In this document: positions 36,067 to 62,418 of the stretch, in pieces
Position numbering within the stretch: position 1 is the stretch's first letter
Layout: each line of letters begins with the position of its first letter
Assembly (NCBI GenBank): GCA_003056145.1
Contig: LSNL01000003.1
Span: 73,993-137,992 of the forward strand
Origin: Parcubacteria group bacterium M10-OD1-1
GTDB lineage: Bacteria > Patescibacteriota > Minisyncoccia > Moranbacterales > UBA2206
Reading direction: 5' to 3'
Length of the DNA stretch: 64,000 bases
Made by a program: the position numbers and the translations under genes
The notes under the pieces: model-generated
Database searches by the model: none
Told to the model about the DNA's origin: nothing
The model's input: the letters and a program-made list of their open reading frames with translations, nothing else

Positions 36067-36142
36067 GCCGCGTTCGTCTAGTCTGGTCCAGGACGCCAGG
36101 TTTTCATCCTGGAAATCAGGGGTTCGAATCCCCTACGCGGTA
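36067..36142 (+). tRNA. tRNA-Glu (anticodon UUC); CCA not encoded
   Basis: Cloverleaf by hand: acceptor GCCGCGT/ACGCGGT, anticodon stem CCAGG/CCTGG with loop TTTTCAT, T arm AGGGGTTCGAATCCCCT. Close to E. coli tRNA-Glu. Confidence 0.85.
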
Positions 36143-36149
36143 CTAAAAG

Positions 36150-44034: not shown

Positions 44035-44036
44035 AA

Positions 44037-45170: not shown

Positions 45171-45274
45171 TTGCGGAATAAGAAATCAATACTAAATTCA
45201 GAGTTAGTTAATTATATAAAGTATGCTAAAAAGTTAAAATACAAAAATATTATTAATTTTCTTGATTATTATAT

Positions 45275-47068: not shown

Positions 47069-47082
47069 AAATAAAAAATAAT

Positions 47083-48018
47083 ATGGCAAAAATAGGATAT
47101 ATCCAAGTAACTCGTACTTGTAATCAAAAATGTATAATTTGTTCTAATCCTCCTAATGAAAAAGTGTTAAGTCTACAAACAGCCAAACTGGAAATAGATA
47201 AATTAAAAAATAATGGTTGCACAGGAGTTATTCTTACAGGAGGAGAACCAACTCTTTATGAGAAATTACCAGAGCTAATTAGATATAGCTTTAAGAAAAA
47301 TATTTTTCCTAGAATTATTACTAATGGGCAAAAAATAGCTAAGCTAAGATATTTAAAAACTCTTCAACGAGCTGGATTAAAACATATACATCTTTCTATT
47401 TTTTCTTATCAAAGTAAAATTCAAGCTAAAATTTCTCAGAATAATCATTCACTTTATAATATAAAAAGGGCTTTAGACAACTTAAACAAAGTAGAAGGCA
47501 TAACCGTTGATGTTAATACGGCTATTAGTAAATATAATGCTAATCATTTATCTAAAACGGTTCAATGGATTGTAAAAAATTATCCTTTTATAAATCATTT
47601 TGTATTTAATAATCTAGATCCTTATATGAATAGAGCCATGAAGAATCCTCAGATAATTCCCACTCTTAATGATTTTGAATTAGAGCTACACAGAGCTTTA
47701 AGTTTTTTAGAAAAAAATAAAAAAACTTTTCGAGTTGAGAAAGTCCCGTTGTGTTATTTGACGGACTATGAGCATGTTTCTACAGAAACTCGAAAAATTG
47801 TTAAGAAAGAGAGCAGAACAGTGTATTTTTTAGATGAGAAGAAGAGAGTAACTCAAAAAAGCTGGTTTTCTAGAAAAACAGATGACTGTCAACAATGTTC
47901 TTTGAAAAATATTTGTTCAGGATTGTATGCTATTGGGGGTTTTTATAAAGAGACAGAATTATATGCTGTCTTTGAAGATCCGAAAAAAATAATTAAAAAA
48001 ATTAGACAAAACCAATGA
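47083..48018 (+). CDS. Radical SAM protein (same paralog group)
   Basis: TRTCNQKCIICSN, TGGEPT, C-terminal CQQCSLKNICSG. Confidence 0.8.
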   Translation: MAKIGYIQVTRTCNQKCIICSNPPNEKVLSLQTAKLEIDKLKNNGCTGVILTGGEPTLYEKLPELIRYSFKKNIFPRIITNGQKIAKLRYLKTLQRAGLKHIHLSIFSYQSKIQAKISQNNHSLYNIKRALDNLNKVEGITVDVNTAISKYNANHLSKTVQWIVKNYPFINHFVFNNLDPYMNRAMKNPQIIPTLNDFELELHRALSFLEKNKKTFRVEKVPLCYLTDYEHVSTETRKIVKKESRTVYFLDEKKRVTQKSWFSRKTDDCQQCSLKNICSGLYAIGGFYKETELYAVFEDPKKIIKKIRQNQ

Positions 48019-48965
48019 TTTTTAATTATTTATTTCTGGGAGTAATTTTATTAGTTAGTTTGGTAATTTGTTGGGAAGACATTCAGCATAAAAAAATTAG
48101 AAACAAATTAATTCTAATTGGTTTGCTCTTAGGCGCTATTTTATTCGGAGGCTCATATTTTTTAGGATGGATTAATAATTATTATTTAAAAGTTGTTTTC
48201 TTTAACACTGTAATTGCGATAGTAGTTAGTTTTTTAATTTGGAAAATGGGATTTTGGCCAGCTGGAGATAGCAAATATTTTATATTGATAGCTTTTCTTT
48301 TACCAATACATTATTATAATAAGTCATACTTGGAATATTTTCCTTCTTTTATCTTATTAGTGAATATATTTATTTTATTCGTAGGAATTATTTTAGTTAA
48401 AGTAATATATTTTAACTCAAGAAGTTTTATAATCTTTTCAGCCAAAACAAACAGAGGAGAGCTTAAGCAAAAATTTTTTCAAGTAGTGAATACTCTTATA
48501 GTCAATATGCAAAATGTAAGTAACTGGAAAAAATGGGGGAAGGGGATGCTATTAGGGGGAATGATGTATTTTATTCTAAGTTTTTTTATTTATAAACGGA
48601 GTATTGATTTAGTGCCTTTCTTTATATATTCAACGGCCTTTGGCTTATTTGATGTTATTTTTAATTTTTACAATCAATCATTTGCTAAAAAATCTATAGA
48701 CATTATTAATTTACAGCCAAAAATGAATTTAGCTGATGAGTTTCCAAGCGATTTAAAAAAAGATAAAGAAAGAATAGAGAAAATTGGGAAATTAAGGCCA
48801 GACGGATTAGATAAACAACAGGTAAGAGTTATTAAAGAATACTATATCAGTAAAGACTTGAAGCAGATTTATATTTATAAAACAATTCCTTTTTCAATCT
48901 GGATATTTATTGGTACGGTAATAACAATAATTTTTCAAAGAAATATTATCCAGATTATTTTATAA
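48015..48965 (+). CDS. Polytopic membrane protein with an N-terminal A24-like (prepilin-peptidase/TadV-type) aspartic peptidase signature
   Basis: WEDIQHK... (first Asp) and WPAGDSKYFILIAF (GxGD-type second Asp) about 65 aa apart, then about 190 aa of extra TM region. Confidence 0.4.
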   Translation: MIFNYLFLGVILLVSLVICWEDIQHKKIRNKLILIGLLLGAILFGGSYFLGWINNYYLKVVFFNTVIAIVVSFLIWKMGFWPAGDSKYFILIAFLLPIHYYNKSYLEYFPSFILLVNIFILFVGIILVKVIYFNSRSFIIFSAKTNRGELKQKFFQVVNTLIVNMQNVSNWKKWGKGMLLGGMMYFILSFFIYKRSIDLVPFFIYSTAFGLFDVIFNFYNQSFAKKSIDIINLQPKMNLADEFPSDLKKDKERIEKIGKLRPDGLDKQQVRVIKEYYISKDLKQIYIYKTIPFSIWIFIGTVITIIFQRNIIQIIL

Positions 48966-48980
48966 TATTTTCAAAAAAAG

Positions 48981-50576
48981 ATGAAATATTTTCAAGATTT
49001 TTTTTGGTTTAAAATGGGAATAGCTATTTTAACATCCTTTTTATACTTCTTTTCTTTTCCTGGCAATTTTAATGCGGGTTTGTTGTCATTTATCGCGTTA
49101 ATACCTTTCTTTTGGTCAATTACAAAAATTAAAAAATATTGGCAAGGAGCATTGTTGTCTTTCGTAGTTTTTTTTCTAGCTTTTTTATTAATTACTAATT
49201 GTTTCATAAAAATTAATATTATAATCTGGATAGTTGTAAGCTTAATATATTCTTTAATATATTATATCCCCTTAGGTTTAGCATTAGTTTATTTTAACAG
49301 AAAATATCAGGCTTATAATATTATAAATTATCCAGCTGTGTTCATTCTAATAGAATGGTCTAGGAGTTTTGGTATATTAGCTTTGCCCTTTGGAAATATT
49401 TCTAGTTCACTTTATCGGTACCCTTACCTCATTCAAATAGCTGCATTTCTCGGTGAATATTCGGTAAGTTTCTTGATTGTTATAGTCAATGTATCTTTAA
49501 TGGTAGTATTAAAATTTCTGCTAACACATAAAAAATTACTTAAAATAGAAAAAATTTTATTAACATTAGCTATAAGTATATTCATTCTTAATTTATTTAT
49601 TGGTATTTTTGAAATTAAGAAAAATCATCCTGAAATTGAAAGGAAAAGTATTAATGTGCTAGTCATAAATCCAAAAATAAAAAGTGATATTGGATCTGGT
49701 ATGAATAAAAAAGAGCTCGCAGATTATTCAGATGCACGTCTTAACTCAGTTATTAAATTGACCAATGATGCTATGAATAAGATTAGTTCTAATGTTGACT
49801 TAGTTATTTGGGGAGAGGCGACTATTATGAATGATGTTTTTTGGAAATATAAAAATGAGGGAGTTAACTATTATCCATCAAATAATGCAATAAAACTTAA
49901 ACAGTTTATTGCTCGGAAAGGGGTACCAGTTTTGCTAGGGGGCTATGTGTTCGAACTTAAACATGGTAAGATGATTTTTTTAAACAGCTCGGTACTTATA
50001 AATTCTAGCGGAGTGATTAAGCAGACTTACGAGAAAAATAAACTTATTATTTTTGGGGAGTATATTCCTAGTTATTTAAGATTTTTAATTCCTTATGCTA
50101 AGAAAATGGATCTTAAATCTAGACTGATATCTAAGAGTAGAACTGTCTTTAATATTGATGGTTTTAAGATAGTAACTCCCATATGTTTTGAAAATGGTTT
50201 TAACTCTTATCTGCGGGATTTATTGCGATCTGGAGATGTGGATTTAATCGCTAATATATCTGATGATAGTGTTTTTCGTAGCCAGTTTGAAGCTAGACAG
50301 CATTTTGCTGCTAATGTTTTCAGAGCAATAGAAAATCGAACAAATGTAGTGGAAGTTTCTAATTTTGGTATTAATGGAAAAATATCTAAGTATGGAATTA
50401 TCAGTAAAGACACTTCTTCTCAAGAAGGATATCTCTTGATAAATTTTAAAAAAAAAGAAGGAAAAATATTTACAACATTCTCAAAGTATGGTAATCTAAT
50501 AGTAGGAATTATAATTGTTAGTTATGTAATAGTTTTATTGATGATGTTTATTAACTTTTTTATTTCTAATAAATAA
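48981..50576 (+). CDS. Apolipoprotein N-acyltransferase-like protein (N-terminal polytopic domain plus C-terminal CN-hydrolase domain)
   Basis: VIWGEAT (Glu), PICFEN (catalytic Cys) in nitrilase-superfamily spacing. Six to eight N-terminal TM helices. Confidence 0.6.
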   Translation: MKYFQDFFWFKMGIAILTSFLYFFSFPGNFNAGLLSFIALIPFFWSITKIKKYWQGALLSFVVFFLAFLLITNCFIKINIIIWIVVSLIYSLIYYIPLGLALVYFNRKYQAYNIINYPAVFILIEWSRSFGILALPFGNISSSLYRYPYLIQIAAFLGEYSVSFLIVIVNVSLMVVLKFLLTHKKLLKIEKILLTLAISIFILNLFIGIFEIKKNHPEIERKSINVLVINPKIKSDIGSGMNKKELADYSDARLNSVIKLTNDAMNKISSNVDLVIWGEATIMNDVFWKYKNEGVNYYPSNNAIKLKQFIARKGVPVLLGGYVFELKHGKMIFLNSSVLINSSGVIKQTYEKNKLIIFGEYIPSYLRFLIPYAKKMDLKSRLISKSRTVFNIDGFKIVTPICFENGFNSYLRDLLRSGDVDLIANISDDSVFRSQFEARQHFAANVFRAIENRTNVVEVSNFGINGKISKYGIISKDTSSQEGYLLINFKKKEGKIFTTFSKYGNLIVGIIIVSYVIVLLMMFINFFISNK

Positions 50577-50598
50577 TTATTTTTTTTGATCTAAACTA

Positions 50599-51279
50599 AT
50601 GAATAAATTTATTCCTAGGGCAGTCATTTATTTAGGTTTATTTTGTCTGTTAATTGGGATTAGTTTTTTCCCTAATGTTGCGTTGGGTATTGGACCACCA
50701 CCACCACCACCACCAGTAACTCATACTGATAGATTTGTATGTGCTCCTGACGGTCAGACACCTGTTGTTATATTAAAATCATACGAAAGTGGGGTTGATT
50801 ATAATTTGTCGGTATGTGCTCCGGGTCCATTTTTAAATGCTACTGCATGTTACAATCAAGATGACCATGTGTATACTTGTGCGCTATCTTCATCAGATTA
50901 TGATAGCCAAGACAATGAATGCAAATCGGTTGATTTTGATTATACTCCTGTCGTAGCTTCAAGTTGCTCTGGAATCGATAAGTTTACTTGTAATGCTGGA
51001 TATACATATAGTAGCGGTACCTGTTGGTCAGCTTGGACCCCTTTGGCTAGTACAGTATGCTTGGGAGTTTCTTTTACTCAAACAAGAACGGATGGTTACG
51101 GAGATATACAAACACAAACTGCCGTTGGTACTAAAACTAGTTCAATTTGGACACCACCTGAAGATACCGTTTGCAATGGACGTATTTTTCAACAGGTAGG
51201 TGACTGCGGGGACCTAAAAGTAACAAAATCAGTAGGTACTAGAAGTTGTGGCTGGAGAGAAGTGAATCCATCTTTCTAA
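50599..51279 (+). CDS. Secreted Cys/Ser/Thr-rich protein with a polyproline linker
   Basis: Signal peptide, PPPPPPP, then 16 Cys in a region that is locally GC-richer. Confidence 0.5.
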   Translation: MNKFIPRAVIYLGLFCLLIGISFFPNVALGIGPPPPPPPVTHTDRFVCAPDGQTPVVILKSYESGVDYNLSVCAPGPFLNATACYNQDDHVYTCALSSSDYDSQDNECKSVDFDYTPVVASSCSGIDKFTCNAGYTYSSGTCWSAWTPLASTVCLGVSFTQTRTDGYGDIQTQTAVGTKTSSIWTPPEDTVCNGRIFQQVGDCGDLKVTKSVGTRSCGWREVNPSF

Positions 51280-51358
51280 TTAAAGCTCTCATTCGTAAAA
51301 GCAGAATAGCTACTCAATATCTGAATTAGTTACAAAATTATTTTTATTCTTTATTTAT

Positions 51359-51862
51359 ATGAAAAATCATCAAAGTATCAAAACTAAAAAAAATCTTAAA
51401 AAAAATGAAATTAGCTTTTTATTGAAGACTGATATTTATCCAAAATATATTATCTATAAAGCTTGTTATACTTTTATTGATCGGGTGTATATTTATTTGG
51501 ATAAACATACTAAAGAAGATATAAAAGTTACTTTAAAGGGTAAAAATAAATTAAAAGATAAGGATATAGATTCATTAAAAGGATTATTCCTTAACGAATT
51601 ATTAAATGTAATTTTAAGAGAAAATATTACCAAAAGGAATAAAAAGATATTAGAGTATATTGTTGGTGGAGCTATTAATGCTTCTTTGGAAAATAATAAA
51701 TTAGTAGAGTTGGAGAATAAAAGTAAAGACCAGCTAGATAAGAAAGAATCAGAAGAAGATATTAATGTTGAAAAAGAGATAGCAATTTTAAAAAAAGAAT
51801 TGGAGAAAATGGAAGAAGAAGATTTTGAAAATGATTCTCTTGGAATTAAAGAAGTCTGTTAG
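51359..51862 (+). CDS. Hypothetical Lys-rich protein with a coiled-coil C-terminus
   Basis: ORF only. Confidence 0.35.
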   Translation: MKNHQSIKTKKNLKKNEISFLLKTDIYPKYIIYKACYTFIDRVYIYLDKHTKEDIKVTLKGKNKLKDKDIDSLKGLFLNELLNVILRENITKRNKKILEYIVGGAINASLENNKLVELENKSKDQLDKKESEEDINVEKEIAILKKELEKMEEEDFENDSLGIKEVC

Positions 51863-51888
51863 TTTTTAAGTAGATAAAAAAGATAAGG

Positions 51889-52119
51889 ATGAAAAAAAGA
51901 TTAACGAAAAAAATGAAATTTAGTTGCAGTTTATATAGCCAGCAAAGCGTTGAAAAGACCATTGATAATTTTAGAGATGGTAACCAAGATATTGAATTTA
52001 AATTTAAGAGAATTAAAGGATATGTAGAAATAGTAATTAATTATTCAAATTCAAAATTAGTTAACGAAGAATTTATAAATGAATTTTCTAATTATTTATT
52101 ATTTCTTAATATTAAATAA
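51889..52119 (+). CDS. Small hypothetical protein (76 aa) immediately upstream of an rSAM/SPASM gene
   Basis: ORF abutting the 52122 start by 2 nt. Candidate partner or precursor. Confidence 0.3.
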   Translation: MKKRLTKKMKFSCSLYSQQSVEKTIDNFRDGNQDIEFKFKRIKGYVEIVINYSNSKLVNEEFINEFSNYLLFLNIK

Positions 52120-52121
52120 AA

Positions 52122-53600
52122 ATGAAAACTAAAAATAAAGAGATGAAAGTTTCTAAGATAGGTAATTTTAGATTCAAAGAATTTAAAAATAAAGTTCTTA
52201 TTACAAATGATGGAGGAGATTGGATGTGGCTTAGCTCAGATAATTTTAGTAAGTTATCAACAGGAGAAATTAAAAAAGATAATCGGATATATCAAGAACT
52301 AGTCAAGAAAAATTTTGTAGATGTTGATAAAAAAAAAGTAATAAAGTTGGCCAGAAAATATTTGCGATTAAATCAAACAGTTTTTCAAGGTACTTCTTTA
52401 TTTATTATCGTTTTAACGTTGCGATGTAATCACCGTTGTCTTTATTGTCAGGCTATACCAGAACATCCTAGCAAAAAAGGGTTTGATATGGATAAGGAGC
52501 AAGCAAGAAAAGTAGTAGATTTAATTTTTTGTACGCCTTCTCATTATGTTAATATTGAATTTCAAGGAGGAGAACCTCTTTTGAATTGGGAAATCTTAAA
52601 ATATATAACTAAATATGCTAAAAAAGTTAATAAAGAAAAGAAAAAGGATTTAGGAATTAGTTTAGTGTCTAATCTAACTTTATTAAACGATGAAAAATTA
52701 AAGTATTTATTAGACAACAATATAAGTATTAGTTGTTCTTTTGATGGACCTTCATATGTTCATAATAAAAATAGGCTTTATTTAGAGGATAATAATGGTC
52801 ATAAGGCAGTTGTAGCTAAAATAATCAAAGTTCAAAAAGCGATTAAAGCTAAGAAGAAAATAAATAAAAATAAATTCGTTGATCAACTTAATGCCGTTTT
52901 AACCGTTAGTCGTTTCGCACTTCCTTATCCTAAAAAAATTGTTGATGAGTATTTAAAAAGAGGATTTGGAAATATTTTTATTAGACCCTTAAGTCCTTTC
53001 GGGTTAGAAAGGAAAACTTTAGATATAATCGGTTATAAGGCGGAAGATTTTATCAAGTTCTATATAAAGATGATGGACTATATTCTAAAAATTAATTTAG
53101 AAAAAAAAATGTTCATAGAGAGGACTACTTTCTATGCTTTGAAGAAAATTATACAACAAGAAGATCCTGGATATTATGAAATGAGATCTCCCTGTGGAGC
53201 TGGTATTGGACAGATGGCGTTTGATTATGATGGTAGGATATTCACTTGTGATGAAGGAAGAATGGCAGCTAGAATGGGTTATGATAATTTTATGCTAGGT
53301 GATGTTAATGAAAATGATAATAGGGAAGGTTATAATAAATTGATTGATAATGAAGTTACTAAAACTATGTGTCTAGCTTCATCATTAGATAATTATACTG
53401 AATGTCAAAATTGTCCGTACAAACCATATTGTGGAACTTGTCCTCTAGCAAATTTTATTGAATTCGGAACAATTATGCCTCAAATTTCTAATACTGATCG
53501 TTGTAAAATAAATAAGGCGATGTTTGATTATATCTTTTTAAAAATGAAAAATGAAAAATACCGAGCTATTTTTAACAGTTGGTTGGAAAATTCAAAGTAG
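52122..53600 (+). CDS. Radical SAM/SPASM peptide-modifying enzyme with an about 90-aa N-terminal extension
   Basis: LRCNHRCLYCQ, QGGEPLL, C-terminal CGAGIGQ...CDEG...CQNCPYKPYCGTCP (SPASM auxiliary-cluster Cys). Confidence 0.85.
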   Translation: MKTKNKEMKVSKIGNFRFKEFKNKVLITNDGGDWMWLSSDNFSKLSTGEIKKDNRIYQELVKKNFVDVDKKKVIKLARKYLRLNQTVFQGTSLFIIVLTLRCNHRCLYCQAIPEHPSKKGFDMDKEQARKVVDLIFCTPSHYVNIEFQGGEPLLNWEILKYITKYAKKVNKEKKKDLGISLVSNLTLLNDEKLKYLLDNNISISCSFDGPSYVHNKNRLYLEDNNGHKAVVAKIIKVQKAIKAKKKINKNKFVDQLNAVLTVSRFALPYPKKIVDEYLKRGFGNIFIRPLSPFGLERKTLDIIGYKAEDFIKFYIKMMDYILKINLEKKMFIERTTFYALKKIIQQEDPGYYEMRSPCGAGIGQMAFDYDGRIFTCDEGRMAARMGYDNFMLGDVNENDNREGYNKLIDNEVTKTMCLASSLDNYTECQNCPYKPYCGTCPLANFIEFGTIMPQISNTDRCKINKAMFDYIFLKMKNEKYRAIFNSWLENSK

Positions 53601-53603
53601 TTT

Positions 53604-54764
53604 ATGAAATCAAAAAGTCAAATCAGTAGAAAGAATGATATACCTGAAAGCCTAAATTTATTTTTTACTGACAGATGTAATTTGGACTGTCAATATTGTT
53701 TTGTTAATAAAAATGGACATAAAGAAAATACTTTAGAGGAAGATTCTTTAAAGAAAAGTGTTGATTTGTTATTGGAATATCCTCAAGCAGAGAAAATGAT
53801 TAGTTTCAGTGGAGGGGAACCAATATTAGAATTTTCATTATTAAAGAATATTTGTGACTATGCTAAAAAAAAAGCGTTGCAAAAAAGAAAAAAGTTGCAT
53901 ATGTTTGTTGCTACTAATGGGACACTTCTAAATCAAAAGATAGTAGATTATTTTTCGAAAAATAATATTGCTATTAAAATTAGTCTTGATGGTAGTAAGG
54001 AAACCCATGATAAAAACCGTTCCTTTAAAAATCAATCTCATCTGTCTAGTTTTAAGCAAATAATGGACAATTTAGCTAGTATTGATACTAGTCGATTAAA
54101 TGTTTCAATTTCTATGGTTTTTACTCCCGAAACAATAGATAATCTTTTAGATAATATTAAATTTTTAAATAAAAAATCATTTACTGCTATTAATTTTTAT
54201 CCAGATTTATATGCAAATTGGAAAAAAAATGACTTAATTAAATTTAAACAAACATTTAATAAATTCGCAATTTATTATGTCAATCTCTTTGACCAAAATA
54301 AAGTAAATAATATTTTTAAAAATTATTTTTTGGATTCTATCTTTAACAAAGTGAATAGCAATAAGATGAGTAATTGTGATAAACTAAACTTAAGTTCGTC
54401 AGGTCAATTTTATGTTTGTGATAAAGTTCTTTCTATTAAGGACGTTAAACGAAAAAATTATATCATTGGAAATGTTAAACAAGGTGTTAATAATCAGAAA
54501 AGGATAGAATCTTTAAGAAAAATCAGGGATGATTTTTTGAAAACTAGTAAGCTGAATTGTGAGAAGTGTCAGTATTATGAATATTGTTTCTGTCCAATAG
54601 GACATTATATTTATTTCTCGAATAGTATAGAGAAAAATAAAAATGATTATTGGAAAAATTTTTGTTTTATATCCCGAAACTATAGTAAGATTTTTCTAGC
54701 TATAAATAAATCATTAGAAGATAACAAAAAATATATCAAAATATATAAACAAAATAAGTTGTAG
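53604..54764 (+). CDS. Radical SAM/SPASM peptide-modifying enzyme
   Basis: TDRCNLDCQYCF, SGGEPIL, C-terminal CEKCQYYEYCFCPIGH. Confidence 0.85.
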   Translation: MKSKSQISRKNDIPESLNLFFTDRCNLDCQYCFVNKNGHKENTLEEDSLKKSVDLLLEYPQAEKMISFSGGEPILEFSLLKNICDYAKKKALQKRKKLHMFVATNGTLLNQKIVDYFSKNNIAIKISLDGSKETHDKNRSFKNQSHLSSFKQIMDNLASIDTSRLNVSISMVFTPETIDNLLDNIKFLNKKSFTAINFYPDLYANWKKNDLIKFKQTFNKFAIYYVNLFDQNKVNNIFKNYFLDSIFNKVNSNKMSNCDKLNLSSSGQFYVCDKVLSIKDVKRKNYIIGNVKQGVNNQKRIESLRKIRDDFLKTSKLNCEKCQYYEYCFCPIGHYIYFSNSIEKNKNDYWKNFCFISRNYSKIFLAINKSLEDNKKYIKIYKQNKL

Positions 54765-54799
54765 TATTTTTTAAAAGTGGTATAATAAAAAAGTAATAG

Positions 54800-55090
54800 T
54801 TGTTATATAATCCTATGAAAAGAATAAATAATAAGTTTCCAAAAATAAAAAAAGAATTAAAGACTTTTTTATTAAGCGAAGAGGGAAAAATTGTTGAGAA
54901 AGATGCTATTAAATTAGGAATCGCATTAATTGCAGTCGCTGGAATTTTAAGCGGAGTAATGAAAATTAAGGATGTTCACGCAGGAACTTGTGCTCACGTA
55001 TCTCATGGTTCTCATGGTTCTCATGGTTCTCATGGCTCTCATGGCTCTCATGGCTCTCATGGTTCTCATTCTCAAGGTGGTTGGTGTTAA
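54800..55090 (+). CDS. His-Xaa-Ser repeat peptide, a candidate RiPP precursor: leader with a hydrophobic helix plus CAHV-(SHG)7-SHSQGGWC
   Basis: Seven perfect SHG triplets flanked by Cys at the extreme C-terminus. Located between two rSAM/SPASM pairs. Confidence 0.7.
   Translation: MLYNPMKRINNKFPKIKKELKTFLLSEEGKIVEKDAIKLGIALIAVAGILSGVMKIKDVHAGTCAHVSHGSHGSHGSHGSHGSHGSHGSHSQGGWC
55001..55069. repeat. 9-bp tandem repeat (tctcatggy x7) encoding (SHG)7
   Basis: Read from the sequence. The third position of Gly alternates t/c. Confidence 0.85.
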
Positions 55091-55120
55091 TCTGGCTATT
55101 TAATTTTTAAAATAATTAAA

Positions 55121-56026
55121 ATGAAAAGAAAAATAATTATTGGAGCAATTGTCATTTTATTGCTAGTGATTTTAAGTGCATTGGGACTATTTTTTCTTCG
55201 AGACAATAATCAGACAAGTAATTCTATAAATAATCCTAAAGAACAAACAAGCAATAATATTAAAGCAGGTAACCAAATAAATAATAGTATTAATTTTAAT
55301 AACCAAAAAAACAATAATATCAAAACAGGAAAAATTTTTAAAAGGAGTAACTTACAAGATTGTCAACAAAATTTATTAAAGGATAATTATACTCAGAATG
55401 ATTTTAGTTTAGAATATTATTATGTAGTCAAATCATTTTTAAACAAGAATCAAAAATTTTGTAAATTACTCAGAAATAAAGATTCGGTAGATAATTGTAA
55501 TAATATATATAGTTTGTATGTATCCTTAGCTAATAATAACTGCCAAAGCATTAAAAATAATAAAACTGCTTATTCGTTTTGTTTAGCAAATTCAAAGCAC
55601 AATATTAATCTCTGTCCAACAGAAAATAAAGATTCTCAGCAGATTTGTCAAGCAATTACGAAAGGAGATGAAACAATGTGTCAAGGGCTAAAAGATACAA
55701 AGACTGATCACACTTTAAATCGATGTCGGAATGAAGTTTATTTAGCTAAGGCAGTTGAAAATAAAAATGTTTCTTTATGTCAAAAAATTAAAGCAATCAA
55801 TCCACAGGGATCTGCCGAAAAGTTTATTTGCGATGTTTTCACTGGAGATAGTCAATCTAGTTTAACGAAGGCGCTCAATTCTTTTAAAGAAAATATTTGT
55901 TACGAGCGATACGGAAATGTTACTGCTAAAGAAAAAAATAATAAATCTATTTGTGAAAAAATTCCTTGGAAAAGTGACTTTAGTAAGATAGGATATCAAG
56001 AATGTATTAATCAGTTTAATCAGTAA
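55121..56026 (+). CDS. Membrane-anchored Asn-rich protein with 14 periodically spaced Cys
   Basis: N-terminal TM, then repeated x(10-20)-C-(Q/x) units. Confidence 0.5.
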   Translation: MKRKIIIGAIVILLLVILSALGLFFLRDNNQTSNSINNPKEQTSNNIKAGNQINNSINFNNQKNNNIKTGKIFKRSNLQDCQQNLLKDNYTQNDFSLEYYYVVKSFLNKNQKFCKLLRNKDSVDNCNNIYSLYVSLANNNCQSIKNNKTAYSFCLANSKHNINLCPTENKDSQQICQAITKGDETMCQGLKDTKTDHTLNRCRNEVYLAKAVENKNVSLCQKIKAINPQGSAEKFICDVFTGDSQSSLTKALNSFKENICYERYGNVTAKEKNNKSICEKIPWKSDFSKIGYQECINQFNQ

Positions 56027-56036
56027 TTATAATTTT

Positions 56037-56954
56037 TTGAGAAATAAATATTTAGCTGAAAATGTTTTAAACCTAGCTGATAATTTAGAAGTCTCTCCCT
56101 TAACAATAAAAAAAACCACTTCTTTCTTAAACAAATTAATCAAATTAGATTCTAAAAAGATAACTCAATTTGAGTTATCTTTTAAGGCTAAGAGGCAGCT
56201 TAAAGAAAAAAGAAAAATTCGGATTTTAAATATTGATTCTAAAGCGTATTCTTATTTTAGCCAAAAATTATACACGAAGAGAATAAATGATTATTATTCA
56301 TTAATTCAAGATAATAATAATCCGTGGTTAGCAAGGTTATTCCGTAGTTTATTATCTATTGCAGATAATCCGTTGGATGTTTATATGGGGGCTGATGTAG
56401 AGAACAATTATTGTCTTTATGCATTCTGGCTAATATTTGGAGGTGCTCAAAAAGACGGAAAAATAAGCTTTGTTAAAAACAGCAATGAGCTAATTAACAA
56501 AATATTTAAAACTCTAAAAATAAAACCAGAATTTCCAGTCAGCAAGGACATACTTAATTTAGGATTTGATATTGATAATAGCTCTTTTTTTTATAAAATT
56601 TATTATTTTTTAAATAAAAATAATTATAATACAATTAGTCAAGAAAGCAGGTCGGTAGTACATACTATTATTAAATTTTTGAAAAATAACCATAAGTATT
56701 GGTTTTTTGTCAGCGAAAGATTTGAAGTAGGGAAAAAAAATATCAATAGAAAAAAAATATACCTAGAGTTCTTAGATGATTTAAAAATAAATCAAGAAGA
56801 AACCTATAAATTACTTGACCATCTATTAAAAATAATTGGATGTGATTATAAAATTAAAAAAATAAAATCCCTGCTGAAAAACATCAAAGGAAAAATTGTT
56901 ATTTTGGCGTTTGAGGATGATGGGACAACAACATTTTATATAAGGCTAGATTGA
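56037..56954 (+). CDS. Hypothetical protein (305 aa, TTG start) inside the rSAM cluster
   Basis: ORF only. Its stop (TGA at 56952-56954) abuts the ATG of the next rSAM gene at 56955. Confidence 0.4.
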   Translation: MRNKYLAENVLNLADNLEVSPLTIKKTTSFLNKLIKLDSKKITQFELSFKAKRQLKEKRKIRILNIDSKAYSYFSQKLYTKRINDYYSLIQDNNNPWLARLFRSLLSIADNPLDVYMGADVENNYCLYAFWLIFGGAQKDGKISFVKNSNELINKIFKTLKIKPEFPVSKDILNLGFDIDNSSFFYKIYYFLNKNNYNTISQESRSVVHTIIKFLKNNHKYWFFVSERFEVGKKNINRKKIYLEFLDDLKINQEETYKLLDHLLKIIGCDYKIKKIKSLLKNIKGKIVILAFEDDGTTTFYIRLD

Positions 56955-58046
56955 ATGATGAAGATTAATAAAAAAATTAGTAAAATTAAGTTAACATTAA
57001 CTACTAATTGCAATTTGGCTTGCAATTATTGTTTTGTTAAAAAAACTAACGAAAGGACGTCTTTTGATGTGGCTAAAAAAAGTATTGATTTGCTTTTAAA
57101 CTCTCCTGGCAATGAGAAACTACTTTCTTTATACGGAGGAGAACCTCTTCTAATGTTTAGTTTGATTAAACAAATTGTTGCTTATTCTCAGAAGCTAGCT
57201 AGCAAGAACAAAAAAAAACTCACTATTTCCATTTGCACTAATTTAACTTTTATTAATGAAGAAATTAAAAAGTTTATCAAAGAAAATAGCTTAAAGATTA
57301 CAATTAGTGTCGTCGGTATAGCAAAAGATCATAATAAATTCAGAAGCTTTATTAATGGAGTTGGGTCACATCAGAAAGTTATTGAAAATATTAAAGAAAT
57401 TTTCAAAATTTTACCAGCAGAAAATATCGGCATTTCTTTTGTTGTCCTTCCGGAATTAAGTTCACGGTTATTAGATAATATTCAATATATTAATAATCTA
57501 GAGATAAGTAATAAAAATATTAATTTTGAAATAATTCAAGACTATAAGGAATGGGATAAAAATAGCATAGAGAATTTTAAAAATAGTTATAAAAAAATTA
57601 GTCAAAAACTTTTAAGAAGTATTTCACAAAAGAAAAAAACAACATATTTTAATATAATCAATTGGGAATTAGAGAAAAAGGCAATTAGCCAAAAATTAGG
57701 AAATAGTTGTCCGTTTGAGTATTTATTAGAAATCTATCCTTCTGGAGATATTGCGTTCTCTCCATTTTTGTTAAATAAAAAAAATAAAAAGGATTTTATC
57801 ATTGGCAATGTTAAAGAATTAAAATTAAAAAGATATAATAACTGTCAATATATTAAAAATGATAAAAAATGCCAAAAATGTCAACAAATTTATTTTCAAA
57901 AAAATAAAAGTTTTGATAATGCTAATAAAGTAAAAATGTATTATGATATAATAAGTTTAGCCACTGCTAGAATAATTCAAGAAAAAGGAAAATCAGAGAA
58001 ATCATTTAAAAACTATATTACTGAAGCTAAAAAGCGATGTTTTTAA
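56955..58046 (+). CDS. Radical SAM/SPASM peptide-modifying enzyme
   Basis: TTNCNLACNYCF, YGGEPLL, C-terminal CQKCQQ. Confidence 0.85.
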   Translation: MMKINKKISKIKLTLTTNCNLACNYCFVKKTNERTSFDVAKKSIDLLLNSPGNEKLLSLYGGEPLLMFSLIKQIVAYSQKLASKNKKKLTISICTNLTFINEEIKKFIKENSLKITISVVGIAKDHNKFRSFINGVGSHQKVIENIKEIFKILPAENIGISFVVLPELSSRLLDNIQYINNLEISNKNINFEIIQDYKEWDKNSIENFKNSYKKISQKLLRSISQKKKTTYFNIINWELEKKAISQKLGNSCPFEYLLEIYPSGDIAFSPFLLNKKNKKDFIIGNVKELKLKRYNNCQYIKNDKKCQKCQQIYFQKNKSFDNANKVKMYYDIISLATARIIQEKGKSEKSFKNYITEAKKRCF

Positions 58047-58127
58047 ATTTAATTAGTTAAAAATTTGAAGTGAAATAAATTTTGTAATCGGTGTCTCTAC
58101 AGAGTGGGTTTAAATTAATTTAATAGA

Positions 58128-59237
58128 ATGAATAAATCAATTAATAGTAAAGGAGTTTCTTTTTACCCAAGGCAAATAGATATTTGTTTTAGTGAAAAAT
58201 GCAATTTAGATTGTGATTATTGTTTTGTTAATAAGACAAGCGATAAGGTTTTAGATATTAAAAAAATCAAATCAGCTATAGATATTTTTCTGGATTTTCC
58301 AGGAAAAAATAAAACAATTACTTTCACTACCAGCGAACCATTTATTAATCCGAGGCTTTTTAGAGATTCAATAAAATATATTTTTCAAGAGGTTAAGAAA
58401 AAAAATATCAATATTTTGGTTATTGCAACTACCAATGGAATTCTTTTTAATAGAGAAATGCAGGAGTTTATTAAACGGTTAGATGATAGATTTATACTTA
58501 ATTTTAGTCTAGACGGGAAAGAAGATAGTCATAATGCACACAGAAAAATTAAAAATTCCCAAAGCAATTATTTTGAATTAGCAATTAAAAATTTTAGCAA
58601 TTTTTCTAGAAAAAATGGATATGTTAGAATTATTTCTACTATTGCTTCAGACCAAGTAAATTTTTTGCTGACTAATACTGAATTTATTATTAAACAAGGG
58701 TTCTCATATATTGATTTATTTCCTCAACTGTTTAAAATATGGAGTAAAAAAGAAAGAGATGTTTTAGAGAGCAGTTTAAATTCTATAGTTGATAAAATTA
58801 ATAAAAAAGAGGTAAAATTAGATTTAAGGATTCTAAATAGATTATGGGTAAGCACAGATTATGCAAAAATTATGTTGGGAGCAGATGGAAAATTTTATTT
58901 ATTTGAATGGGTGTTACCATTAAAAGAAAAGCATAGAAAGTTATTCCAAATAGGGGATTATCGGCATATTAATTTAGCCAAAAGAAAAAAATTGTTCGAG
59001 CTATTATTTAATCAGATATCAAAAGTAAATAAATCAAAATGTAGTACTTGTGAATATAATGCTTTTTGTTCAGATCCATTACCACTATATTTGTGGAGTC
59101 TATATAATAAATATGATTTTTTAACCTATTTTAAAAACTTTTGTCAAATTTCTAAAATCATGATCAGGATAAGCAATAGAATTAAAATTAAAAATAGAAC
59201 CGATAAAAGTAAATGGGAAGAAGTTATTAAAAAATAA
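58128..59237 (+). CDS. Radical SAM protein with a degenerate SAM-binding (GGE) motif
   Basis: SEKCNLDCDYCF is present, but the GGEP position reads TTSEPFI. C-terminal CSTCEYNAFC. Confidence 0.7.
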   Translation: MNKSINSKGVSFYPRQIDICFSEKCNLDCDYCFVNKTSDKVLDIKKIKSAIDIFLDFPGKNKTITFTTSEPFINPRLFRDSIKYIFQEVKKKNINILVIATTNGILFNREMQEFIKRLDDRFILNFSLDGKEDSHNAHRKIKNSQSNYFELAIKNFSNFSRKNGYVRIISTIASDQVNFLLTNTEFIIKQGFSYIDLFPQLFKIWSKKERDVLESSLNSIVDKINKKEVKLDLRILNRLWVSTDYAKIMLGADGKFYLFEWVLPLKEKHRKLFQIGDYRHINLAKRKKLFELLFNQISKVNKSKCSTCEYNAFCSDPLPLYLWSLYNKYDFLTYFKNFCQISKIMIRISNRIKIKNRTDKSKWEEVIKK

Positions 59238-59239
59238 AT

Positions 59240-59941
59240 ATGAAAAAAATTAAAGTAGCTTGCGTAATTAGTGGAGGGAAGGATGGAATTTTTGGATATT
59301 ATCAATCTGTTAAAAAATATAATGTTGCAGTTTTACTGAATTTAAATGACAACAATAAAGATGTGAGTTTTCATCATTATCAAAAAGAATTAGTCGCATT
59401 GCAAGCCAAAGCGATTGGATTGCCATTAATACAAAAGACAGTAGTTGCTCAATATAGAAATCAAAATCTTTTTGAAGAGCAAATTTTTGATATTTTCTCT
59501 AAACTTAAAAAAGATGGGATTAGAGGTGTAATTCTTGGCTATGTTTTAACAGGTGATTATCAGCATGATTTATTAAAAAGAATTTGTAGTGAATTAGAGA
59601 TAAAACTTATTTTACCAAACTATAAAAGAAATTCGAAAATTGTCTTAACGGAAATCATTGAATCAAATATTGTAGCTATTATTACTTCTGTTATGAAAGG
59701 TAAGATTGCTAGGGAGTGGTTAGGGAAGCCAATTGATAAAAAATTCTTAAAGTATTTAATGAATAAAAAAAATATAGATTTTTGTGGTGACAAAGGAGAA
59801 TTTCACACTTTTGTTGTAGACGCCCCATTTTTTAAAAAGAAAATTTATTTTAATGAAATAGAAAAAAATAAAATACCTCTCAAAGATGATTTTTATGAAT
59901 ATTGTTTGAAAATTAAAAAATATTCTTTTCAGGATAGATAA
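59240..59941 (+). CDS. PP-loop ATP pyrophosphatase of the DUF71/MJ0570 (Dph6-related) family
   Basis: VACVISGGKDG (SGGxD PP-loop) at the N-terminus, about 230 aa. Confidence 0.55.
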   Translation: MKKIKVACVISGGKDGIFGYYQSVKKYNVAVLLNLNDNNKDVSFHHYQKELVALQAKAIGLPLIQKTVVAQYRNQNLFEEQIFDIFSKLKKDGIRGVILGYVLTGDYQHDLLKRICSELEIKLILPNYKRNSKIVLTEIIESNIVAIITSVMKGKIAREWLGKPIDKKFLKYLMNKKNIDFCGDKGEFHTFVVDAPFFKKKIYFNEIEKNKIPLKDDFYEYCLKIKKYSFQDR

Positions 59942-59952
59942 TTTTTAAAAAT

Positions 59953-60675
59953 ATGGAGAATAATAATATTTATATTTTAAATTTAGACTCTTGCAATCAA
60001 AGATGTTTATTCTGTATGAAAGTAGATGATTTGAATAATAATAACCATATTAAAGAATTAGCTGATGTAAAAAAAGAAATATTTAAGGCCAAAGAAAATG
60101 GCTATCAACTAATTGATTTTTTTGGAGGAGAGCCAACTGTTTTTTCTTTTCTTTCTAAATCCATTTCTTTAGCACAGAAGAATGGAATGTTAGTGATGTT
60201 AGCCACTAATGGGGTAAAATTTTCTTCGAAAGAATATGCAACCAATTTTTTTAAAGAAATAGATTCACAAAAGATAACTTTTAGAGTATCAATGCATAGT
60301 CAAAATCACGGAGTACATGATTACATAACTCAATTAAAGGGAAGTCACAAAAGAACAGAAACTGGAATCTTAAACATATTAAATTATGTTGAGAAATTAA
60401 CAGCTAATATTGTGATAACATCTTTAAATTTTAAAGAGTTGAGTAAAATAGTTCAATATTTACATGGTTTAGGAGTGAAAGGTGTAAAGTTCTCTGCTTT
60501 GCAATTGCAAGGGGAGATTCTAAAGAATAAACGATTAATTGTTGATTATAAAGAATTTAGGAAATACCTTTTAGAGGCGGTACTATTGTCAAAAAAATTA
60601 AAATTTAAAAGCATTGAAATTGAGAAAATTAATAAAAGTGAATTGAATAAATTAAATTTTGTAAAGTTTCTATAA
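59953..60675 (+). CDS. Small radical SAM protein (CNNNC-type paralog group, 240 aa, no SPASM)
   Basis: DSCNQRCLFCM, FGGEPT. Confidence 0.8.
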   Translation: MENNNIYILNLDSCNQRCLFCMKVDDLNNNNHIKELADVKKEIFKAKENGYQLIDFFGGEPTVFSFLSKSISLAQKNGMLVMLATNGVKFSSKEYATNFFKEIDSQKITFRVSMHSQNHGVHDYITQLKGSHKRTETGILNILNYVEKLTANIVITSLNFKELSKIVQYLHGLGVKGVKFSALQLQGEILKNKRLIVDYKEFRKYLLEAVLLSKKLKFKSIEIEKINKSELNKLNFVKFL

Positions 60676-60698
60676 CTATTTAAGTCTATAATGAGATT

Positions 60699-61576: not shown

Positions 61577-61649
61577 GTCCTCGTAGCTCAGTGGATAGAG
61601 CGTCTGGTTGCGGTCCAGAAGGTCGGAGGTTCGATTCTTCCCGAGGACA
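61577..61649 (+). tRNA. tRNA-Arg, anticodon read as GCG; CCA not encoded
   Basis: Acceptor GTCCTCG/CGAGGAC, D arm GCTCAGTGGATAGAGC, anticodon stem TCTGG/CCAGA with loop TTGCGGT, T arm GGAGGTTCGATTCTTCC. Resembles E. coli tRNA-Arg. Confidence 0.75.
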
Positions 61650-61876
61650 CTAAAAGAGCCTCTATTTAAATAGGGATTTTATATTGGAAAAGAGAAAGTA
61701 GAATTTCCATAAAAACTTTTTTTAAACAAAATCCTGAATAAATCGGTGTGTTTCCGCTTGCTTCTGTTTCGCTTTGGCGAAATCAAAACAGAAAATTTTA
61801 CTTTCCCTCTTAAAAGAAAAAGTCAAAAAAGTTTCTTTGTTTTCTGCTTGGGTAAATGCTTCAATAACTTAATTTG

Positions 61877-62328: not shown

Positions 62329-62418
62329 TGGCGGAGAGGCAGGGATTCGAACCCTGGAACCCGATTAAAGGTTAACACGTTAGCAGTGTGCCGCTTTCGA
62401 CCACTCAGCCACCTCTCC
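62329..62418 (-). tRNA. tRNA-Ser (anticodon GCU), type II with a long variable arm; CCA encoded
   Basis: Acceptor GGAGAGG/CCTCTCC, D arm GCTGAGTGGTCGAAAGC, loop CTGCTAA, variable-arm stem AACC/GGTT, T arm CAGGGTTCGAATCCCTG. Confidence 0.85.

Follow-up and report, generated by a model that had tools for sequence, protein, structure and literature searches.

A probable radical-SAM-modified, exported repeat peptide of the Hxs family in a multi-enzyme gene cluster of Parcubacteria group bacterium M10-OD1-1

We wanted to know what is made from a small gene of Parcubacteria group bacterium M10-OD1-1 that ends in seven perfect Ser-His-Gly repeats and lies among radical S-adenosylmethionine (radical SAM) genes. 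The gene is located in a stretch of 64,000 nucleotides (positions 73,993 to 137,992 of contig LSNL01000003.1, assembly GCA_003056145.1), which we refer to as the window, and an earlier note, made from the letters of the window alone, had suggested that it encodes a precursor of the His-Xaa-Ser (Hxs) type. Our analysis makes it probable that 54815..55090 encodes the precursor of a radical-SAM-modified, exported ribosomal peptide of the Hxs family, in the small-peptide branch of the family to which the NCBIfam models HxsA3 and HxsA4 belong. The 91-amino-acid (aa) precursor can be divided into a putative leader (aa 1-35), a putative hydrophobic and AxA-type signal part (aa 36-56) and a putative core (aa 57-91), and the features of its gene are as follows.

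54815..55090, + strand: precursor gene, HxsA3/HxsA4-like, 91 aa plus stop (based on the translation, the NCBIfam scores and 416 homologues).
54815..54919, + strand: leader or n-region, aa 1-35, with the motif F8-P-K-I-K-K-E-L-K-T-F-L-L-S-E-E-G24 and then K33-L-G35 at the hydrophobic boundary.
54920..54982, + strand: signal-peptide-like h-region, aa 36-49 (IALIAVAGILSGVM), and c-region, aa 50-56 (KIKDVHA).
54983..55087, + strand: predicted core, aa 57-91, GTC-AHV-(SHG)7-SHSQGGW-C.
55001..55069, + strand: 9-bp tandem DNA repeat TCTCATGGT/C, encoding the SHG units (Tandem Repeats Finder).

The open reading frame (ORF) from TTG 54800 to 55090 has 96 codons, as described in the earlier note, and its C-terminal part is GTCAHVSHGSHGSHGSHGSHGSHGSHGSHSQGGWC, followed by the stop. 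The real start, however, is almost certainly ATG 54815, because the same 91-aa product (MKRINNKFPKIKKELKTFLLSEEGKIVEKDAIKLGIALIAVAGILSGVMKIKDVHAGTCAHVSHGSHGSHGSHGSHGSHGSHGSHSQGGWC) was called independently on two other assemblies and because all homologues begin 7 to 12 residues ahead of a conserved PKIKK motif. Reading 54700..55200 reproduced the ending C-AHV-(SHG)7-SHSQGGW-C; the segment from Cys59 to Cys91, previously given as 35 residues, is 33 residues long, and the figure of 35 is obtained when counting from the predicted signal-peptidase site. In the His-Xaa-Ser register the core consists of one HVS, seven HGS and a terminal HSQ (aa 61-87), so the window peptide contains the tandem array of an Hxs repeat protein, with eight consecutive H-x-S units. 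The basic residues of the core are nine His, with no Lys or Arg, and the protein stops at residue 91 with no further domain. The 9-bp periodicity of the DNA was also borne out: Tandem Repeats Finder gave a period of 9, 7.7 copies, 96% matches and a score of 117, which is the top score among all 82 rows for the window, and the repeat is kept at the protein level in hundreds of relatives. The precursor repeat is far beyond chance. We found no second precursor of the same kind across the window. An antisense ORF at 54947..55075 was rejected as a gene and attributed to the repeat, and a promoter and terminator scan around the peptide gene was uninformative in this 27% GC DNA (39 promoter-like sites versus 35.8 expected in shuffles).

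A search for homologues of the peptide among 5.8 billion proteins returned 416 matches at E<=0.01, the best 120 of which are all 74-153 residues long. The named sources are Omnitrophica/Omnitrophota, Patescibacteria-group, Falkowbacteria and Elusimicrobiales metagenome-assembled genomes (MAGs), and two of these relatives are already labelled HxsA4 by NCBI; a relative is also encoded in one Woesearchaeota MAG. For family statistics we used 121 sequences; the motif F-L-x-x-E-E-G is present in 118 of them, and positions were counted over these 118, anchored on the Gly of the motif. The family leader reads [LIF]-P-K-I-K-K-D-[IL]-K-x-F-L-x-S-E-E-G-K-I-x-K-K-D-x-x-K-[LI]-[G/A], in which F and L are found in 118/118, the two E in 116-117/118 and G in 111/118 relatives, with K at +9 from the motif Gly in 104/118 and G/A at +11 in 113/118. 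Following K-[LI]-[G/A], the relatives have a 14-residue uncharged hydrophobic stretch and then K-[A/P]-D-D-[V/A/T/S]-x-[A/G/S], after which x-C-x-H and the repeats usually come; in this c-region, V/A/T/S/G occupies -3 in 93/118, A/G/S/T occupies -1 in 95/118 and Pro is found at -5 in 35/118. The number of H-x-x units per relative ranges from 3 to 23 (median 7; window peptide 9). H-x-S accounts for 85% of the family repeat units, with Gly (52%), Ala (18%) and Ser (17%) as Xaa, and the all-Gly repeats that the earlier note had stressed are the norm within this peptide branch. The short tail contains an aromatic residue in 112 of the 121 relatives (GGWC, GQW, SSY and others). Since the leader alone (56 residues) recovered 47 cluster representatives at E<=1e-3 among 1.84 billion proteins, the homology of the family is not an effect of the low-complexity repeat.

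Judged from these conserved positions, the N-terminus is built like a Sec signal peptide whose n-region is unusually long and conserved. The earlier description of a charged and then hydrophobic leader stands as far as its composition is concerned, but the segment is recast as a Sec-type signal peptide in which an extended n-region precedes the h- and c-regions. A signal peptidase I site is predicted after V54-H-A56, which would leave the 35-residue core GTC...GGWC. We considered a lipoprotein, given that the cluster includes Lnt and that a Cys follows the signal sequence, and rejected it: Lnt is particular to the window, and the residues before the Cys form no consistent lipobox. Some relatives are built differently. 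At L011, one of the related loci that we cite by their L numbers, a 489-aa protein (3697..5163) has the leader and about 40 HxS units fused to a C-terminal domain of roughly 330 residues, and the 213-aa relative at L029 (4927..5565) has a region rich in Thr and Pro and a membrane helix at its end. Two precursor genes stand in tandem at L012 (2032..2837) and at L033 (9671..10231).

Haft and Basu are said to have defined the Hxs system by comparative genomics, and the models TIGR03976-TIGR03979 describe it. Against the NCBIfam model HxsA3 (NF038309) the window peptide scores 61.3 bits (E 5.6e-17, profile positions 1-77 of 81); it aligns end to end with both HxsA3 and HxsA4, yet below their cut-offs. 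When 33 aligned family members were compared with the models at E<=1e-5, HxsA3 was matched by 33/33, HxsA4 by 28/33 and the original HxsA model TIGR03979 by 4/33. The four genes immediately upstream of the peptide gene are the following.

51359..51862, + strand: HxsD, 167 aa, upstream of HxsB (TIGR03976, 58.7 bits, cut-off 50).
51889..52119, + strand: small HxsD-like protein (D'), 76 aa (NF038315, 34.4 bits, just below the cut-off of 41).
52122..53600, + strand: HxsB, radical SAM/SPASM maturase, 492 aa (TIGR03978, 479.1 bits, cut-off 370, full-length model).
53604..54764, + strand: radical SAM/SPASM protein in the position of HxsC but not HxsC, here rSAM_d (best NCBIfam model PapB, 181.8 bits, cut-off 340).

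HxsB is 32% identical to the annotated hxsB product of an Aeromonas plasmid and has an N-terminal extension of roughly 95 aa, a C102x3Cx2C motif and eight C-terminal Cys; a search of its N-terminus for a PqqD-like domain or RiPP recognition element (RiPP, a peptide that is made by the ribosome and modified after translation) gave nothing significant. HxsD holds the LLNxxLRE-like motif LFLNELLNVILRE. The local gene order, D-D'-B-rSAM_d-A, resembles the canonical D-B-C-A layout, with a non-HxsC enzyme in third place; the third enzyme and the substrate differ. The spacing is tight, as noted earlier, with the TTG codon 35 nt (the ATG codon 50 nt) past the stop of rSAM_d and the gene of a Cys-rich protein beginning at 55121, 30 nt past the stop of the peptide gene; a second radical SAM pair lies downstream. 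Overall, the Hxs-type interpretation put forward in the earlier note is supported by HxsB and HxsD, which pass their cut-offs, by the near miss to HxsA3 and by the canonical-like gene order.

To gather related loci, we used exact-protein look-ups, a genome scan with HxsB and a metagenome scan with the peptide alignment, and the loci were compared with the window proteins by tblastn and iterated profile searches. Linkage was counted over the 22 distinct informative loci whose flanking DNA was long enough. In 18 of these 22, HxsB is encoded no more than 6 kb upstream of the peptide gene, and radical SAM genes are in the same cluster in 21/22, L030 being the exception. HxsD is present in 18 distinct related loci, with the small paralogue after it in nearly all. 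The order D-D'-B-(d)-A recurs in Omnitrophica (L003/L004), in Moraniibacteriota (L009), in a Woesearchaeota MAG (L010) and in many metagenome contigs; the scan of a genome collection with HxsB gave two loci, in a Moraniibacteriota MAG (65% identity) and in the Woesearchaeota MAG (40%). The archaeal locus (L010, 8122..12355 of Candidatus Woesearchaeota MAG JAFGCE010000085.1) encodes an A24-family protease, HxsD, HxsD', HxsB and a 127-aa peptide that shares the leader and the HxS repeats with the bacterial relatives. This indicates that the system has passed between bacteria and archaea, unless the contig was misbinned.

These counts bear on the possibility, also raised in the earlier note, that the product is a His-rich peptide which binds metal unmodified, whether anchored in the membrane or secreted, and whose gene simply happens to lie beside radical SAM genes. 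Even unmodified, nine His at every third position together with two Cys would bind Ni, Zn or Cu, and the orphan relative at L030 fits such a peptide. However, homologues without radical SAM neighbours, the pattern named as telling against an Hxs-type precursor, are not what the 22 loci show; synteny with HxsB/HxsD is kept across phyla, and the nearly invariant 35-residue leader would have no role in a simple secreted metal binder. We consider an unmodified binder very improbable. Metal binding after modification is compatible with a radical-SAM-modified Hxs product.

The peptide and its four upstream neighbours are part of a longer block, as every gene from 43138 to 61529 is on one strand, with gaps of <=104 nt. 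The CX3CX2C motif is present in eight genes of 43138..60675, in agreement with the eight radical SAM genes counted before, and one YcaO gene accompanies them. The remaining genes of the system are listed here.

43138..44034, + strand: rSAM_a, HxsC/HxsC4-like radical SAM protein, 298 aa (HxsC4 NF038332, 162.7 bits, cut-off 500; HxsC, 104 bits).
44037..45170, + strand: rSAM_b, HxsC/MoaA-like radical SAM protein, 377 aa (orthologues in L003, L006, L007, L009, L021 and L032).
45275..47068, + strand: YcaO-domain protein, 597 aa (PF02624, 150.5 bits).
47083..48018, + strand: rSAM_c, HxsC-like radical SAM protein, 311 aa (TIGR03977, 93.8 bits).
48015..48965, + strand: membrane aspartyl protease of the prepilin/preflagellin peptidase family (A24), 316 aa (PF01478, 33.4 bits, cut-off 26.5).
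55121..56026, + strand: membrane-anchored Cys-rich protein, 301 aa (N-terminal hydrophobic helix).
56037..56954, + strand: protein with an ABBA prenyltransferase-barrel (PT-barrel) fold, 305 aa, with no family assignment.
56955..58046, + strand: rSAM_e, radical SAM protein with a partial SPASM/twitch Cys set (orthologues in L003, L005/6, L007 and L009).
58128..59237, + strand: rSAM_f, radical SAM protein (orthologues in L003 and L007).
59240..59941, + strand: Dph6-like PP-loop ATP pyrophosphatase, 233 aa (PF01902, 142.6 bits; TIGR03679, 125.7 bits, cut-off 197).
59953..60675, + strand: rSAM_g, short HxsC-like radical SAM protein, 240 aa (TIGR03977, 89.8 bits, cut-off 267.9).

Three modules recur among the related loci: D-D'-B-(d)-A; the Cys-rich protein, the 305-aa protein, e, f and the Dph6-like protein; and a-b-(YcaO)-c-A24. 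Counted by distinct loci, the Cys-rich protein is found in 10, in which it adjoins the peptide, the A24 protease in 9, including the archaeal one, where its gene is just upstream of HxsD, the 305-aa protein in 4, the Dph6-like protein in 3 and YcaO in 2. The rSAM_a orthologues of L003, L006, L007, L009, L017 and L021 are 57-67% identical to it; orthologues of rSAM_c directly precede the A24 gene in L006, L007 and L021 and are also found in L032. A YcaO gene is also present in L009, between rSAM_a and rSAM_b; because YcaO is missing from most loci, we regard it as an accessory part. The Dph6-like protein retains the PP-loop motif SGGKDG and has orthologues in L003 and L007, and rSAM_g, whose Cys set is CX3CX2C only, is weakly conserved elsewhere. 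The Cys-rich protein has 14 invariant Cys in an alignment of four sequences; a word-based homologue search with it found a single near-identical protein, and its AlphaFold2 (AF2) model was unusable (predicted local distance difference test, pLDDT, 45.5). The context is richer than that of described Hxs loci, as claimed before, and the extra genes are kept across phyla and are not an accident of one genome; the cluster is shared by ultra-small, uncultured bacteria and by at least one archaeal genome.

The block is bounded by RecG on one side and by a tRNA-Arg gene on the other. Three of its genes, for Lnt, for a 226-aa Pro/Cys-rich protein and for a class IV aminotransferase (60699), are particular to the window and so probably lie outside the system. 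The Lnt gene (48981..50576, + strand; TIGR00546, 216 bits) is embedded in the cluster, probably as a housekeeping insertion, and absent from all related loci. The 226-aa protein (50599..51279, + strand), encoded between Lnt and HxsD, has an N-terminal hydrophobic segment, many Cys and no family match, and its seven-Pro run is encoded by an ACC-period repeat (50694..50715). The gene of tRNA-Arg-GCG (61577..61650, + strand), 47 nt past the last same-strand gene, marks the downstream edge of the block; other tRNA genes are those of Ser-GCT (62329..62418, - strand) and Glu-TTC (36067..36143, + strand). The rest of the window (GC 25-33%) is housekeeping in content, including ATP synthase and tRNA synthetases. 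The leucyl-tRNA synthetase (26338..29259, + strand, 973 aa) has an unusual architecture, with an apparent NUDIX domain inserted after the editing domain (residues 422-518, E 4e-10), and a 636-aa protein (3365..5275, + strand) has DUF11, DUF7619 and DUF7927 repeat domains, which are typical of large surface proteins.

We next compared the locus with canonical Hxs. The canonical system, HXS, is an antiphage system that blocks DNA entry in Escherichia coli (Li et al., Nat Commun 2026, PMC13128918). Its gene order is D-B-C-A, and in E. coli the modification and processing of HxsA require all three of HxsB, HxsC and HxsD. HxsA has a signal peptide, matures in the cytoplasm and then acts in the periplasm; the N-terminal cleavage of HxsA is described as non-canonical and dependent on HxsB/HxsC/HxsD, and mutation of its peptidoglycan-binding domain abolished defence (PMC13128918). 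The Aeromonas plasmid locus that we inspected reads hxsD-hxsB-hxsC-hxsA, and its HxsA, which carries HRS repeats, begins with a short signal peptide, continues with a spacer and HRSHRSHSSHRSHSSHRSHYSGYG and binds peptidoglycan through its C-terminal region. The window locus resembles this arrangement in that HxsB and HxsD pass the curated models, D comes first and the repeat protein last; in that the period-3 His/Ser units are followed by an aromatic/Gly stretch (SHYSGYG in canonical HxsA, SHSQGGWC here); and in that the repeat protein has an export signal and is expected to be processed at its N-terminus. It differs in lacking an HxsC equivalog, with a PapB-like SPASM protein in that place and four distant HxsC-like paralogues elsewhere; in the 35-residue core, compared with about 190-215 aa and a peptidoglycan-binding domain in canonical HxsA; in Xaa, which is Gly, Ala or Ser here and Arg or Ser there; in the long conserved leader, of which canonical HxsA has none; in the extra conserved genes (A24, Cys-rich membrane protein, PT-barrel, Dph6-like ATPase and YcaO); and in its hosts, which are Patescibacteria, Omnitrophota, Elusimicrobia and DPANN here and Pseudomonadota there.

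Could the window locus then be a functional equivalent of HXS, with an exported repeat product in the envelope that blocks entry of phage DNA? HxsB, HxsD, a similar gene order, the signal peptide on the repeat protein and an expected dependence on N-terminal processing are shared. The spread of the system is patchy and crosses phyla, as is typical of defence, with HxsB 40-65% identical among Patescibacteria, Omnitrophica and the DPANN archaeon, and the flanking genes vary by lineage. Conversely, the product ends 35 residues past the signal sequence with no peptidoglycan-binding domain, an HxsC equivalog is missing, and the repeats, with Gly, Ala and Ser in place of the Arg-rich units of canonical HxsA, would leave the proposed electrostatic binding of DNA without its basic residues. 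Further, the window context is housekeeping (ATP synthase, tRNA synthetases, RecG), and a PADLOC scan of ten cluster proteins gave only generic radical SAM similarity to viperins and no specific match, though PADLOC predates HXS. In the published survey, 99.7% of HXS systems, with a four-gene layout, were in Pseudomonadota (PMC13128918). An antiphage function of this kind is therefore possible but, in our view, rather doubtful.

A cluster with eight radical SAM proteins, YcaO, a PP-loop ATPase and a prenyltransferase fold has very many enzymes for one short peptide, and this raises the possibility that the repeat peptide is a sacrificial scaffold, whose His-Gly-Ser units are modified and excised as cofactor- or metallophore-like molecules in the manner of pyrroloquinoline quinone or mycofactocin. 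The highly variable repeat number would suit such a scaffold, as it suggests that unit dosage matters over structure. The conserved signal peptide and the non-repeat tail (GGWC, GQW), on the other hand, argue for an intact exported product; the A24 enzyme is the one protease of the cluster, and some relatives are fused to large C-terminal domains (those of L011 and L029). We give the scaffold explanation very little weight.

The radical SAM enzymes themselves belong to two types. The four distant paralogues a, b, c and g score 104, 100.5, 93.8 and 89.8 bits, respectively, against the HxsC model TIGR03977; rSAM_a is 24% identical to canonical HxsC over 254 aa (E 6e-14), and it is also the cluster protein nearest to HxsC4. 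Four others are of the SPASM/twitch type, and among these rSAM_d stands out by its co-occurrence with one type of tail. In what is a small sample, it lies between HxsB and the peptide in 5/5 distinct loci of that layout, and all five peptides end in GGWC; in loci that lack it in that place, the peptides end in W or Y without Cys. L031 is an exception, where the tail is GGWC but a 359-aa protein without a radical SAM or other Pfam match takes the position of rSAM_d. PapB and SCIFF, the maturase equivalogs of ranthipeptide/SCIFF-type thioether peptides, were not reached by cluster enzymes: against PapB (cut-off 340), rSAM_d scored 181.8, rSAM_e 150.6 and rSAM_f 100.3 bits, and SCIFF scores were 109 bits or less (cut-off 425).

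By analogy with triceptides, and as the earlier note proposed, the core could be an array of three-residue cyclophanes, in which each His imidazole would be linked to the Ser beta-carbon two residues on, each repeat thereby losing 2 Da. In favour of such an array, H-x-S matches the pattern aromatic-X-X, enzymes of the SPASM/twitch type number four in the cluster, and the variable repeat number of 3-23 suits iterative unit-by-unit modification. Known triceptide RiPPs, among them some with His-containing motifs (HtkB, HaaB; PMC11499958), likewise combine repeated aromatic-X-X units, SPASM-type radical SAM enzymes and leader-guided modification, and HtkB provides a precedent in its link of His C2 to Lys C-beta (PMC11499958). 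Yet no cluster enzyme reaches the cut-off of any cyclophane-synthase model, the scores being far below it in each case (GrrM/OscB 55.9-89 versus 310 bits, YhhB 48-80 versus 445, FxsB 64 versus 370 and AmcB 43-61 versus 425). Moreover, the sole Hxs modification measured is +8 Da on one SHRSS unit and not -2 Da per unit (PMC13128918). We regard a cyclophane array as unlikely.

The 305-aa protein encoded at 56037..56954 has no Pfam or NCBIfam match except for a sub-threshold one to crAss_MUZ_C (18.4 bits, cut-off 27), and 27 homologues were found. An AF2 model built from the alignment of these homologues reached a pLDDT of 94.1 and a predicted template modelling score of 0.91, and when it was compared with the PDB by Foldseek, all 46 matches at E<=1e-3 were aromatic or peptide prenyltransferases. 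The model has the ten-strand antiparallel barrel of alpha-beta-beta-alpha units that defines the ABBA fold. The invariant residues E46, K50, R62, Y116, K187, Y189, K240, Y301 and R303 are placed on barrel strands with i, i+2 spacing, a pattern that, in the model, fits a conserved barrel interior. A divergent homologue is encoded at the same position in L005/L006 (hhalign probability 97.7%), whereas the DUF5838 protein that adjoins the orthologue in L003 is unrelated (hhalign probability 0.15%). All four loci with the 305-aa protein have a GGWC-tailed peptide. Like PagF, PatF, KgpF, LimF, FunA and AuraA, the protein is encoded beside a peptide, here one that is His-rich and has a conserved Trp/Tyr tail; unlike cyanobactin-type/ABBA prenyltransferases, with which it shares about 10% identity and no sequence-level match, it is part of a radical SAM cluster and not of a cyanobactin cluster. 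PatF shows that members of the ABBA fold can be catalytically inactive. Members of the fold prenylate Trp, Tyr, Arg and His in peptides, and LimF carries out His-C-geranylation (cited in PMC13290415). The protein represents a sequence family without prior annotation, which would matter if confirmed.

The A24 protein encoded at 48015..48965 is polytopic, and its catalytic Asp residues, in W-E-D22 and A-G-D85-S-K, are invariant in 9/9 orthologues. Searches for domains in the C-terminal parts of the YcaO and A24 proteins gave nothing significant; the latter's C-terminal half bears a weak resemblance to the archaeal A24 C-terminal type II domain (E 0.037). Prepilin and preflagellin peptidases cut class III signal peptides, and the sequence K-h-[G/A] before a hydrophobic stretch resembles the sites that they cut. 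As 113 of 118 relatives have such a junction, we propose that the A24 enzyme removes the leader at the membrane, and on sequence grounds K33-L-G35 is a candidate cut site. The N-terminus of the peptide resembles class III (pilin/archaellin) signal peptides in being positively charged up to K-h-G/A and then hydrophobic, and an A24 protease with both catalytic Asp is encoded alongside. It differs in that the highly conserved N-terminal segment is 35 residues long, whereas pilin leaders are short; in having no Glu at +5 and no pilin globular domain; and in that the hydrophobic stretch has 14 residues and is followed by an AxA-type site. A type IV pilin identity was rejected for the lack of Glu at +5 and of a pilin domain and for a hydrophobic stretch of just 14 residues. 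Cleavage of the peptide by the A24 enzyme is nonetheless plausible, though the peptide is not a pilin. We found no literature that links prepilin peptidases to radical SAM peptides, and, to our knowledge, known triceptide precursors carry no signal peptide and have no associated A24 protease.

At L032 (10249..20255), the A24 gene and the stop codon of the peptide gene overlap, and genes for several proteins with prepilin-type N-terminal domains, PilM, PilO and a secretin follow A24. The locus hints that in some lineages the peptide family is tied to a type IV pilus or to an apparatus resembling type II secretion.

Several observations weigh against the reading of 54815..55090 as the precursor of an Hxs-family peptide that is modified by the cluster enzymes and exported. 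The profile searches by which the earlier note proposed to check its suggestion were positive for the peptide, HxsB and HxsD, but no gene of the cluster passes the HxsC equivalog TIGR03977 (cut-off 267.9), and rSAM_d is just 23% identical to canonical HxsC over 195 aa. The peptide itself falls 3.7 bits short of the HxsA3 cut-off (61.3 versus 65 bits, a near miss) and below that of HxsA4 (NF038313, 48.8 versus 55 bits, E 1e-12, positions 2-92 of 93), and the original HxsA model TIGR03979 gives it no match at E<=0.01. L033 has D-D'-B-A with no other radical SAM gene within 10 kb, and the large enzyme set is accordingly accessory and not obligatory. The relative P0062 at L030 (10001..10330) occurs on 24 contigs, the longest >1 Mb, among unrelated genes such as those of isocitrate dehydrogenase and an ABC transporter, and not one Hxs gene is found within 10 kb of it; either this precursor is an orphan or the genes of its enzymes lie in another place. 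The cleavage sites of signal peptidase and of A24 are deduced purely from conservation, and, given the pilus-type genes after A24 in L032, the protease may work for a pilus there, either in addition or instead. Finally, the prenyltransferase assignment comes from the fold, at about 10% identity, and the profile of the PT-barrel family gave no meaningful match among PDB sequences.

We nevertheless consider a modified and exported Hxs peptide the probable product, and the following sequence of events would account for the conserved parts of the locus. In the cytoplasm, the leader would dock the precursor to HxsB, together with HxsD and D', and HxsB would modify the His-Xaa-Ser units, a step that we infer from how the proteins are assigned to families, from the close synteny and from the way the E. 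coli system works. The HxsC-like enzymes a, b, c and g may tailor the peptide further, as may the SPASM/twitch-type enzymes d, e and f, of which d co-occurs with the GGWC tail, and the YcaO protein and the PP-loop ATP pyrophosphatase; the prenyltransferase-fold protein might act on Trp90 or on a His. The signal sequence would then insert the peptide into the membrane or take it across, and the A24 protease would remove the leader at K33-L-G35|I36, and/or signal peptidase I would cut after V54-H-A56. The modified His-rich core of about 35 residues would end on the outer face of the membrane, where it may sit with the membrane-anchored Cys-rich protein encoded 30 nt downstream. For such a product, two roles would be most likely: it could form a barrier to phage in the envelope, as canonical HXS does, or bind metal at the surface. 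In its fullest form, which we put forward tentatively and think less likely to hold than to fail, the product would be a heavily modified, possibly prenylated poly(His-Gly-Ser) peptide, made by a multi-enzyme pathway of HxsB/HxsD, HxsC-like radical SAM enzymes, additional SPASM enzymes, the prenyltransferase-fold protein and the PP-loop ATPase that is kept across Patescibacteria, Omnitrophota, Elusimicrobia and DPANN archaea, and its leader would be removed at the membrane by a dedicated intramembrane protease of the A24 type; if this were true, leader removal and export coupled to A24 would be a feature not described for ribosomal peptides.

With HxsA3 and HxsA4 models already in existence, the novelty of the peptide itself is limited, though we found no publications on the HxsA3, HxsA4, HxsC4 or HxsD-like variants, which are known as annotation models. 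New here are the definition of the leader and signal anatomy, the recurrent A24 protease and the prenyltransferase-fold protein, as well as a multi-enzyme context that is conserved across phyla and in one archaeal MAG. Comparative genomics brought Hxs to light more than ten years ago, and the chemistry of HxsB/HxsC on His-Xaa-Ser units is still unsolved. HxsA of E. coli is an insoluble 214-aa protein, and its reconstitution in vitro failed (PMC13128918). The branch described here offers a simpler substrate, namely a short peptide with a near-invariant leader and a 35-residue core that is almost all repeat, and its natural minimal (D-D'-B-A, L033) and maximal enzyme sets make the chemistry testable stepwise. 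If confirmed, RiPP leader removal would take place in a way not described so far, as is suggested by the A24 protease together with the K-h-G junction. That very small genomes keep a cluster of ~17.5 kb with eight radical SAM genes suggests that its product is important to these organisms.

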